Assembly (NCBI RefSeq): GCF_055900595.2
Contig: NZ_CM148325.1
Length of the DNA: 64,000 bases
Direction: 5' to 3' (one strand)
This document shows, one piece after another, positions 51,883-54,763 of the stretch (positions are counted from its first letter, which is position 1; each line of letters starts with the position of its first letter). The notes beneath the pieces were generated by a model. That model made no database searches. It saw only the letters and a program-made list of their open reading frames with translations, and was not told the origin of the DNA. The translations under genes were made by a program, and so were the position numbers.

Positions 51883-52134
51883 GCTTATTCTCAGGGCGGG
51901 GCGAAATTCCCCACCGGCGGTAAATCAACTCAGTTGAAAGCCCGCGAGCGCTTTGGGTGCGAACTCAAAGGACAGCAGATCCGGTGTAATTCCGGGGCCG
52001 ACGGTTAGAGTCCGGATGGGAGAGAGTAACGATTCTGTCGGGCATGGACCCGCTCACGTTATTTTGGCTATATGCCGCCACTCCTAAGACTGCCCTGATT
52101 CTGGTAACCATAATTTTAGTGAGGTTTTTTTACC
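51883..52134 (+). promoter_or_regulatory. sroG: FMN riboswitch (RFN element) and expression platform in the ribB leader
   Basis: CAGGGCGGGGCGAAATTCCCCACCGGCGGTAAA...CCGACGGTTAGAGTCCGGATGGGAGAGAGTAACG matches conserved RFN aptamer blocks directly upstream of ribB. Confidence 0.85.
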
Positions 52135-52788
52135 ATGAATCAGACGCTACTTTCCTCTTTTGGTACGCCTTTCGAACGTGTTGAAAATGCACTGGCTGCG
52201 CTGCGTGAAGGACGCGGTGTAATGGTGCTTGATGATGAAGACCGTGAAAACGAAGGCGATATGATCTTCCCGGCAGAAACCATGACCGTTGAGCAGATGG
52301 CGCTGACCATTCGCCACGGTAGCGGTATTGTTTGCCTGTGCATTACTGAAGATCGCCGTAAACAACTCGATCTGCCAATGATGGTAGAAAATAACACCAG
52401 CGCCTATGGCACCGGTTTTACCGTGACCATTGAAGCGGCTGAAGGTGTGACTACCGGTGTTTCTGCCGCTGACCGTATTACTACCGTTCGCGCAGCGATT
52501 GCCGATGGCGCAAAACCTTCTGATCTGAATCGTCCTGGCCACGTTTTCCCACTGCGCGCGCAGGCGGGTGGTGTGCTGACGCGTGGCGGCCATACTGAAG
52601 CGACTATTGATCTGATGACGCTGGCAGGCTTTAAACCGGCTGGTGTGCTGTGTGAGCTGACTAATGACGATGGCACGATGGCGCGTGCACCAGAGTGCAT
52701 TGAGTTTGCCAATAAACACAATATGGCGCTCGTGACTATTGAAGACCTGGTGGCATACCGTCAGGCACATGAGCGTAAAGCTAGCTGA
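52135..52788 (+). CDS. ribB: 3,4-dihydroxy-2-butanone 4-phosphate synthase RibB
   Basis: 217 aa, DRENEGD motif. Confidence 0.95.
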
Positions 52789-52826
52789 AAACCGCTGCTT
52801 AATTTACCGCGTTAATCAATAAATAT

Positions 52827-52850
52827 CCTCCGGCATAGCCGGAGGTTTTT
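52827..52850 (+). terminator. ribB intrinsic terminator
   Basis: CCTCCGGC-ATA-GCCGGAGG followed by TTTTT. Confidence 0.7.
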
Positions 52851-52868
52851 CAAATGCGCCTGTAAGGC

Positions 52869-53575
52869 TCTGTTACCAGCCGCGCCCTAACAGGCGCATA
52901 CGATCTGACATTTGCATTCAACTTCGTTACTTACGGCCCGTAAACGGGCTGCCCGGATATGGAATCGATAACTGCTCCCCCATTTTATCCTCTTCAAGCT
53001 GGTGCTTTATGTAGTCCTGTATCTTCGCCGTGTTCTTACCCACCGTATCGACATAGTACCCTCGGCACCAGAACTCCCTGTTTCTGTATTTGAATTTCAA
53101 ATCCCCAAACTGCTCGTAAAGCATCAGACTGCTTTTCCCTTTCAGATATCCCATAAAGCCGGATACGCTCATTTTGGGTGGGATTTCCACAAGCATATGG
53201 ATATGATCTGCGCAGCACTCTGCTTCCAGAATCCGTACGCTTTTCCACTCACACAGCTTTCTCAAAATACTGCCTATCGCCCTACGCTTCTCTCCGTAAA
53301 ACGCCAGTCTTCGGTATTTCGGCGCAAAAACTATGTGATATTTACAGTTCCAGCGGGTGTGCGCTAAGCTCTTTTCGTCCCCCATTGGGACCCCCTTTTG
53401 ATTTCTTGTTTGACACTTGCAGTTGCCAGACCGCAAGGTGTTTTAACAAATCAAAAGGGGTTTTAATAACTGGCTCAAAGCTGAAAGCTTTCCGGAACCC
53501 CCAGCCTAGCTGGGGGTTTTCTGTGCACAAGAAACCGAAGCTATTACTGGCTTCGGTTTTTATTTTGCTCTTGTT
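52869..53575. mobile_element. IS200 copy (about 0.7 kb)
   Basis: 152 aa IS200-type TnpA plus characteristic structured left end: terminator hairpin AAACCGAAGC...GCTTCGGTTT (53532-53559), hairpin AACCCCCAGC...GCTGGGGGTT, and a long stem pairing with the RBS; boundaries estimated from the expected ~707 bp size. Confidence 0.75.
52927..53385 (-). CDS. tnpA: IS200 transposase TnpA (Y1 HuH)
   Basis: start at ATG for MGDEKSLAHTRWNCKYHIVFAPKYRR; HIHMLVEIPP HuH motif; 152 aa. Confidence 0.9.
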   Translation of the reverse strand: MGDEKSLAHTRWNCKYHIVFAPKYRRLAFYGEKRRAIGSILRKLCEWKSVRILEAECCADHIHMLVEIPPKMSVSGFMGYLKGKSSLMLYEQFGDLKFKYRNREFWCRGYYVDTVGKNTAKIQDYIKHQLEEDKMGEQLSIPYPGSPFTGRK

Positions 53576-53761
53576 ATGCAAGATGTTAATTCCTCTTCTC
53601 TTTCTATGAGAAAATTTCATTAATATCAGGCATTCTTTTCCATTATGATCAAAATCATATAATTGTTCCGTTATTATGCGACCATATGAATATATCCGAA
53701 AAAGGATATGTGAATTTTATGCGCTAAATGTTTAGTATTGTTAAATATTAAGGGTAAAAGG

Positions 53762-53932
53762 ATGTTTATCGCCTGGTACTGGATTGTATTGATTGCTCTG
53801 GTTGTGGTGGGTTATTTACTGCATTTGAAACGTTATTGTCGGGCGTTTCGTCAGGACAGAGACGCACTGCTTGAAGCGCGGAATAAATACTTAAACAGTA
53901 CGAGAGAAGAGACAGCCGAGAAGGTAGAATAG
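53762..53932 (+). CDS. small (56 aa) single-TM protein, unassigned
   Basis: ATG at 53762 after AAGGG RBS; MFIAWYWIVLIALVVVGYLLHL TM helix then charged tail; terminator hairpin downstream. Confidence 0.5.
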   Translation: MFIAWYWIVLIALVVVGYLLHLKRYCRAFRQDRDALLEARNKYLNSTREETAEKVE

Positions 53933-53949
53933 GGCTTTAGTGAAGCTGG

Positions 53950-53980
53950 CAGAAGTTGTCCATGCGCTGGACAACTTCTG
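53950..53980. terminator. bidirectional hairpin terminator (small ORF / zupT)
   Basis: CAGAAGTTGTCC-ATGCGCTG-GGACAACTTCTG perfect 12 bp stem. Confidence 0.6.
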
Positions 53981-53989
53981 ATGTTGCTT

Positions 53990-54763
53990 TTAACCAATTC
54001 CCGCCGTTTGTAGTAGCACTAAACTGAATCCCATCACTGACATTCCACATAGCACGCCATAGCTGGGGTTATTATTGGGGTCAATCTCTTTAGCTAGCGG
54101 CATTAATTCATCAACCGAGAGCGCCACCATAATTCCTGCAACCGCCGCCATGATTGCCGCCATGACCACCGGAGAAATCATGCTACCGAGGATTAACCAC
54201 GCCAGAACACCACCAAGAATTTCTGCCAGCCCAGAAATGCCCGCCCACAAAATTGCGGTGCGTTTTGACCCCGTTGCCGCGTAAACCGGCCCCGCAACTG
54301 CCAGACCTTCAGGAATATTATGCAATGCAACAGCCAGCGCGATGCCAAAGCCCAGCTCCAGGTTACTGCTCGCCGTGACAAAGGTGGCAATGCCTTCCGG
54401 GAAGTTATGCAGACTGATGCCGAGAGTGAGCAGAATGGCTGTGCGCTTGATCGATTTTGGCAACGGCTGCACCGATTTTTGCATTAAATCCTGCGGATGC
54501 GCATGTGGCAACATGCGGTCCAGACCAAAATAGCCAAGCAGACCGAAGATAAACATTCCATAACCCAGCACAGGCGACATTCCTTCGGCGGCTAATGCGG
54601 CAGGAAGCATTTCCATTAATGAGATGAGCAACATAATCCCCGCCGCAAATCCTAGCGAAAACGCCAGTAAGCGGTTCGAGGGTTTTTGTCCGAGAACGCC
54701 GAGAAACGCGCCAATAAACGTGGCTGCCCCCGCCAGTATGGTCAGAATGAGAGGTACTGACAT
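53990..54763 (-). CDS. zupT: ZIP-family zinc transporter ZupT
   Basis: start at ATG for [20 protein letters not shown] (257 aa) after GGAG RBS. Confidence 0.92.

Follow-up and report, generated by a model that had tools for sequence, protein, structure and literature searches.

A 56-codon open reading frame lies between an IS200 element and zupT in the 64,000-nucleotide stretch of DNA analysed here (hereafter the window), and this locus raises the question of what small protein is encoded there, how its expression is controlled and with what it might work. The ORF begins at an ATG at position 53762 and ends with a TAG at 53930-53932 (53762..53932, + strand; 56 amino acids plus stop), and its product is MFIAWYWIVLIALVVVGYLLHLKRYCRAFRQDRDALLEARNKYLNSTREETAEKVE. 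The initial annotation had described a ribosome-binding site, an N-terminal transmembrane helix, a charged C-terminal tail and a hairpin, every one of which is present in the sequence, and had suggested that the product might be an annotated single-pass membrane small protein of K-12. Indeed, the ORF is yqiD (b-number b4756; PMC13273102), an E. coli small inner-membrane protein gene that is already named and annotated. The window protein is equal in length to YqiD of K-12 MG1655 and identical to it at 55 of 56 residues, F19L being the only change, and the K-12 gene likewise lies between ribB and zupT (MG1655 coordinates 3183381..3183551; VanOrsdel et al., 2018, PMC6001520). RefSeq places a ‘protein YqiD’ CDS at the same position in strain EC42405, where the sequence is 100% identical, and in the K-12-derived strain C600; in both strains its neighbours are ribB, which is on the same strand, and zupT, which converges on it. 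Moreover, a 441-bp query spanning the yqiD locus matched 4,432 of 5,426 complete E. coli genomes, and the annotation beneath the matches reads ‘yqiD: protein YqiD’. The coding assignment thus draws on the ORF list, the RefSeq annotation, the published sequence (PMC6001520) and the substitution analysis given below.

The position of the start codon required separate consideration, as the ORF list also contains a 64-residue alternative with a TTG start at 53738. In the Salmonella yqiD leader a 1-nt indel places the upstream TTG/ATG out of frame, and the YqiD homologues all begin with M(F/Y)I(A/S)W. Together, these observations indicate that translation starts at the ATG at 53762. This codon is preceded at a spacing of 7 nt by a Shine-Dalgarno sequence, AAGGG (53750-53754, + strand), which is kept in E. 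coli, Salmonella and Citrobacter.

Synthesis of the protein has been demonstrated in K-12. YqiD carrying a chromosomally encoded C-terminal SPA tag was detected by immunoblot in LB cultures, where it was grouped with proteins mostly present at high levels, and the gene was reported as positive in a ribosome profiling screen that used tetracycline as the inhibitor (PMC6001520). Ribosome occupancy, which the initial annotation had named as a check on the ORF, is therefore documented for the K-12 gene. The searchable literature yielded no experiment on the function, partner, topology or phenotype of YqiD.

The yqiD gene is almost universal in the species. Two alleles together account for ∼ 5,422 of the 5,426 complete E. 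coli genomes. The second allele is found in ∼ 990 E. coli genomes that do not contain the K-12-type locus, where RefSeq labels the product ‘hypothetical protein’. It also encodes 56 amino acids, of which the first 41 are similar to the K-12 type while the C-terminal tail is different, and it resembles the E. fergusonii protein. The two E. coli alleles are deeply diverged, with a core dS of 1.2-1.4. When codons 1-41 of yqiD were compared with those of Salmonella, Citrobacter and the second E. coli allele by the Nei-Gojobori method, dN/dS was 0.03-0.10 and dS ranged from 1.1 to > 2, meaning that synonymous sites are saturated. Judged from these substitution rates, the YqiD protein is under strong purifying selection. 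Homologues were identified in E. albertii, E. fergusonii, Citrobacter, Salmonella, Enterobacter sp., Kosakonia, Phytobacter and Atlantibacter, and the homologue searches returned none from genera such as Klebsiella. Conservation across Escherichia, on which the initial annotation had made its reading of the ORF depend, is thus borne out and extends to several further genera.

In UniProt and NCBI the homologues from Salmonella, Citrobacter, Kosakonia, Phytobacter and E. fergusonii bear the name ‘DUF4051 domain-containing protein’. The proteins so named are clear homologues of YqiD, with E-values down to 1e-29; they occupy the same neighbourhood and share with it the core MFIAWYW...KRYCRAFRQDRDALL. 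A search of the available copy of Pfam-A with YqiD and five homologues at E ≤ 10 gave no match to DUF4051, the model seemingly being absent from that copy, so that the membership of YqiD in DUF4051 is proposed from the source names and from homology rather than from a model score. Searches of Pfam, NCBIfam and PADLOC with YqiD returned nothing above threshold. Sub-threshold matches to DUF2621, DUF4381, DUF6526 and others were driven by the hydrophobic helix and were discarded, and when a profile was searched against the Protein Data Bank, every match was to an unrelated helical protein and had E ≥ 0.03. A DUF4051 family gene has also appeared in an expression study of enteroaggregative E. coli 042, where orf3334 belonged to a group of just three tested genes with higher expression in an aar mutant (PMC5570504); orf3334 may be yqiD.

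The predicted architecture of YqiD is simple. Residues 2-20 form its most hydrophobic 19-residue window, with a mean Kyte-Doolittle value of 2.48, and residues 2-22 are predicted to form one transmembrane helix. The tail (residues 23-56) contains nine K/R and seven D/E residues, and the first 15 residues beyond the helix contain five K/R and two D/E. By the positive-inside rule and this charge count, YqiD is predicted to be oriented N-out, C-in, with its C-terminus in the cytoplasm. The protein is accordingly predicted to have no periplasmic domain, with only Met1 and the aromatic FIAWYW start of the helix lying outside. An AlphaFold2 model, for which an alignment of homologues served as input, shows a single continuous helix from residue 2 to residue 55, with block-mean pLDDT values of 84 and 88 over residues 1-20 and of 53-69 further on, in the cytoplasmic part. 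The helix runs on into a conserved basic juxtamembrane segment, KRYCRAFRQDRDALLEAR, which is followed by a variable charged tail of ∼ 15 residues.

An alignment of 21 family sequences shows where the constraint on this structure falls. Residues M1, W5, A28 and R30 are invariant, and I3, W7, Y18, R24, R33, A35 and L36 are nearly so; the last ∼ 15 residues vary freely. Constraint therefore falls on the aromatic residues that open the helix and, on its cytoplasmic continuation, on a stripe comprising R24, A28, R30, R33, A35 and L36. Such a pattern, with the tail left free, fits a docking surface better than it fits an enzyme or a channel. Taken together, the identity of the gene, its coding status and the architecture of its product are assigned with high confidence.

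The sequence before yqiD is also unusual. Across E. coli, Salmonella and Citrobacter the ∼ 120 bp preceding the ATG show a high degree of conservation, despite the saturation of synonymous sites within the gene itself. Two candidate promoters can be placed in the upstream region. A candidate σ70 promoter read by eye, GTGAAT-17 nt-TAGTAT (53710..53738, + strand; GTGAAA in K-12), lies in a block conserved in E. coli, Salmonella and Citrobacter and would give a leader of ∼ 17 nt. An alternative candidate, TTAATA-18 nt-TATGAT (53620..53649, + strand), came from a consensus scan in which the number of matches was no higher than in shuffled sequence; its leader would be ∼ 105 nt long. The putative -10 element of this second candidate coincides with the left arm of a conserved palindrome, TATGAT-CAAA-ATCATA (53644..53659, no strand assigned). 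In each of the five sequences compared, namely two E. coli of the K-12 type, the variant E. coli allele, Salmonella and Citrobacter, its positions 2-15 are paired, and the palindrome is a possible operator of yqiD. The consensus sequences of Fur, Zur and ArcA were compared with it by eye; the best of these, Fur, matched at about 12 of 19 positions with the wrong spacing between the arms, and none was accepted.

A structured RNA could in principle impose similar conservation. For the ∼ 105-nt conserved block RNAalifold returned -12 kcal/mol; the covariation term was positive, compensatory pairs were absent, and the folding z-score of the single sequence was only -1.6. An Rfam scan found nothing credible in the block and no Rfam RNA overlapping yqiD. 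The lack of a conserved RNA structure and of an Rfam match places the conservation at the level of DNA, and it is probably due to promoter and operator sequences. Upstream non-coding variants have been reported to alter yqiD expression among E. coli isolates (bioRxiv 10.1101/2025.06.10.658842).

This raises the question of whether the IS200 element in the window, which the initial annotation had placed about 190 bp upstream and had suggested could affect expression of the gene, has any such effect. Alignment with EC42405 and C600 defines the element as a 711-bp gap (52820..53530, - strand), with an uncertainty of ± 2 nt at its ends that stems from an AA ambiguity at the junction, and the EC42405 alignment corrects the distance between IS200 and the yqiD ATG to 231 bp. 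The element is inserted 31 nt past the stop codon of ribB (52135..52788, + strand; ORF list and RefSeq annotation), directly before the native ribB terminator, and, besides F19L, this insertion between ribB and its terminator sets the window strain apart from K-12. An FMN riboswitch precedes ribB at 51883-52031 (+ strand, 121 bits) and is annotated likewise by RefSeq in related strains. The IS200 copy shares 99-99.9% identity with copies found elsewhere in E. coli under the annotation ‘IS200/IS605 family transposase’, and a query spanning both junctions found the element at this site in none of the 5,426 complete E. coli genomes (coverage ≥ 80%). Its tnpA gene (52927..53385, - strand) encodes 152 amino acids if counted from MGDEKSLAHTRW, as judged from the ORF list and the annotation of near-identical copies. 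The tnpA 5′ leader (53395..53518, - strand) matches Rfam family STnc490 (RF01405) with 146 bits and E = 3e-31; STnc490 is an RNA that binds Hfq and is the counterpart of the IS200 tnpA leader.

Three terminator-like hairpins on the + strand now separate ribB from yqiD. One is the native intrinsic terminator of ribB (53530..53561, + strand), located by a terminator scan and with a folding energy of -20.3 kcal/mol (z = -5.3); it follows ribB directly in IS-free strains and is parted from it by IS200 in the window. The other two are hairpins at the ends of the element, one at 52827-52845 (+ strand) followed by TTTTT and one near 53496-53518 (+ strand) followed by TTTT. In addition, the 231 bp from the end of IS200 to the yqiD ATG are 100% identical to the sequence of IS-free EC42405. 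With terminators upstream and an intact native upstream region, little effect on yqiD expression is to be expected, and the sequence suggests that IS200 most likely leaves it unchanged. Transcription of ribB, on the other hand, should end at the IS200-end hairpin 52827-52845 instead of at its own terminator. The opposite view, that the insertion materially alters yqiD expression in the window strain, can appeal to the short distance between element and gene, to the effects reported for upstream non-coding variants in E. coli isolates and to the chance that the AT-rich upstream region depends on a wider DNA context; however, IS200 lies upstream of an intact ribB terminator and itself ends with + strand hairpins and T-runs, and the unaltered 231 bp include the ∼ 120-bp block conserved across genera. 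A material effect is hence considered unlikely, contrary to what had been suggested initially, and the insertion offers a natural test of how well yqiD is insulated from upstream transcription.

On its other side yqiD faces zupT, which encodes a ZIP-family metal transporter (53990..54763, - strand; ORF list and RefSeq annotation). The two genes are convergent and their stop codons are 57 bp apart. Between them a terminator scan identified a 13-bp hairpin (53950-53980, no strand assigned) followed by ATGTTGCTTTT. The 66-nt segment that contains it (53930-53995) has a minimum free energy of -25.0 kcal/mol on the + strand (z = -3.3) and of -24.3 kcal/mol on the - strand, and where the variant allele and Salmonella differ in the stem, the substitutions are paired and so retain it. 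The hairpin is likely to be the terminator of yqiD and is probably, or at least possibly, shared with zupT, although only the + strand has a T-run, and a weak one.

The convergent pairing of yqiD and zupT is itself a stable feature. It was seen in 11 of the 13 gene arrangements examined, from at least six genera (the window and loci L001, L002, L004, L005, L010, L011, L013, L014, L015 and L016). In two of these the genes even run into each other at their 3′ ends, the overlap being 18 bp in Phytobacter (L005, 4001-4225 and 4208-4981) and 4 bp in Enterobacter sp. (L016, 3501-3701 and 3698-4474). Such coding overlaps imply that the two transcripts are partly antisense to each other in these organisms.

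The flank towards ribB is occupied differently from lineage to lineage. Nothing is inserted between ribB and yqiD in K-12, IS200 is present in the window strain, and a four-gene chaperone-usher fimbrial operon is found in the variant-allele E. coli strain Z1323CEC0015. The fimbrial operon and the minority yqiD allele are located at 3413-9106 of L014 (NZ_CP148423.1). In Salmonella, Enterobacter sp. and L013 the gap contains an assT-dsbL-dsbI island, and family members are found divergent from assT or dsbL in L007-L009, L010, L013, L016 and L017. A paralogous subgroup with RRWRE tails adjoins this island at a distance from zupT (L007-L009 and L017), and the paralogues P0113 and P0115 are likewise located away from zupT. 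A second family member was sought in the assT-ygiC gap of an E. coli strain that carries the island, and only a weak resemblance over 24 residues (37% identity) was seen, which was rejected as a match. The ORF in question, of 42 amino acids, lies at 14468-14596 in L014 and weakly resembles P0113; it may be a decayed copy.

How might such a protein act? The reading preferred here, to which a probability of roughly 40% is attached, is that YqiD is a small accessory or regulatory subunit of a larger inner-membrane protein; it is put forward largely by analogy with other small membrane proteins. The gene has its own conserved ∼ 120-bp upstream region and ends at the hairpin that it probably has in common with zupT; in the proposed mechanism the protein would dock on its partner through the transmembrane helix and the conserved juxtamembrane face. 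ZupT, as a near-constant neighbour, would be the first candidate for the partner.

Several more specific or competing explanations can be weighed against the same observations. If YqiD modulates ZupT, membrane binding would tune the activity, stability or metal selectivity of the transporter. The convergent arrangement, kept in 11 of 13 cases while the other flank was replaced by IS200, the fimbrial operon or the assT island, would fit this idea, as would the 3′ overlaps in Phytobacter and Enterobacter sp., and small proteins that regulate metal transporters do exist, for example MntS with MntP and MgtS with MgtA. Convergent genes, however, are not operonic and so are not co-transcribed, and an old, stable gene order could equally explain the adjacency. 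Moreover, ZupT is far more widespread than the YqiD family and is present in genera such as Klebsiella, in which no family member was seen, so that ZupT probably functions independently of YqiD; the location of P0113 and P0115 away from zupT, and of a subgroup beside assT/dsbL/dsbI, also argues against the idea. Modulation of ZupT in particular is therefore thought unlikely. The association with the island suggests instead that the family may work with the AssT arylsulfate sulfotransferase and the DsbL/DsbI disulfide system, for instance on the membrane protein DsbI, and both the divergent arrangements and the distinct RRWRE-tail subgroup next to the island speak for it. Yet K-12 and the window strain have yqiD and no assT island, E. 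coli strains with the island between ygiD and ygiC carry at most a degenerate family remnant there, and the association may simply reflect an insertion hot spot; this alternative appears distinctly improbable. A combined scheme, in which YqiD/DUF4051 proteins would be dedicated regulatory subunits of whichever membrane machine is encoded next door, ZupT in most genera and DsbI/AssT for the paralogues, is a speculative extension and is judged doubtful, on a par with modulation of ZupT.

Two further readings were weighed. With its small size, hydrophobic N-terminal helix and charged tail, YqiD bears a superficial likeness to the Hok and Ldr toxins, and it could be imagined as a type I toxin-like, membrane-damaging peptide that is normally silent. 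This is very improbable: cells grown in ordinary rich medium contain detectable YqiD made from the chromosomal gene (PMC6001520), and the gene is single-copy, syntenic and vertically inherited, with no antisense RNA family, no conserved leader structure and no PADLOC match. In keeping with this, a promoter scan found no promoter-like site on the - strand within or downstream of yqiD, the sole one (53589..53562) lying upstream and pointing away; like the searches for an antisense RNA and for a leader structure, this is a weak test. Finally, yqiD might be no more than an ORF that occurs by chance in AT-rich spacer DNA and lacks a function as a protein. Small size and the lack of a curated family match are all that favours this, and it is refuted by the low dN/dS values over codons 1-41, by the near-universal presence of the gene in complete E. 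coli genomes and by detection of the protein, so that its probability is negligible. A small subunit of a larger inner-membrane protein stays the preferred, if tentative, reading.

As a finding in its own right yqiD adds little, since the gene already had a name and an annotation and its translation had been demonstrated. Its value lies in its being a well-defined orphan that is subject to strong purifying selection, that essentially all E. coli carry and whose place beside zupT is stable while the opposite flank has been rebuilt repeatedly. Identification of its partner would provide a further case of the control of a transporter by a small protein. Should the scheme of a dedicated subunit be correct, a conserved 56-residue protein would tune metal uptake in the Enterobacteriaceae, and the palindrome TATGAT-N4-ATCATA would be the operator of a putative regulator.

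YqiD can be compared with two groups of known small membrane proteins. In the toxins Hok, Ldr and TisB, as in YqiD, a charged tail follows a small hydrophobic helix; unlike them, YqiD is detectable during normal growth, has no antisense RNA that could be found, and is encoded by a single-copy, syntenic gene. A functional analogy can be drawn with AcrZ, MgtS, CydX and KdpF, which are also of ∼ 30-60 amino acids with one transmembrane helix and no enzymatic domain, and which bind a larger membrane protein; they have no sequence similarity to YqiD. In contrast to CydX and KdpF, yqiD is not in an operon with a candidate partner. The C-terminus of AcrZ is cytoplasmic, as is predicted for YqiD, and AcrZ docks on AcrB in a manner analogous to that proposed here for YqiD and its partner.
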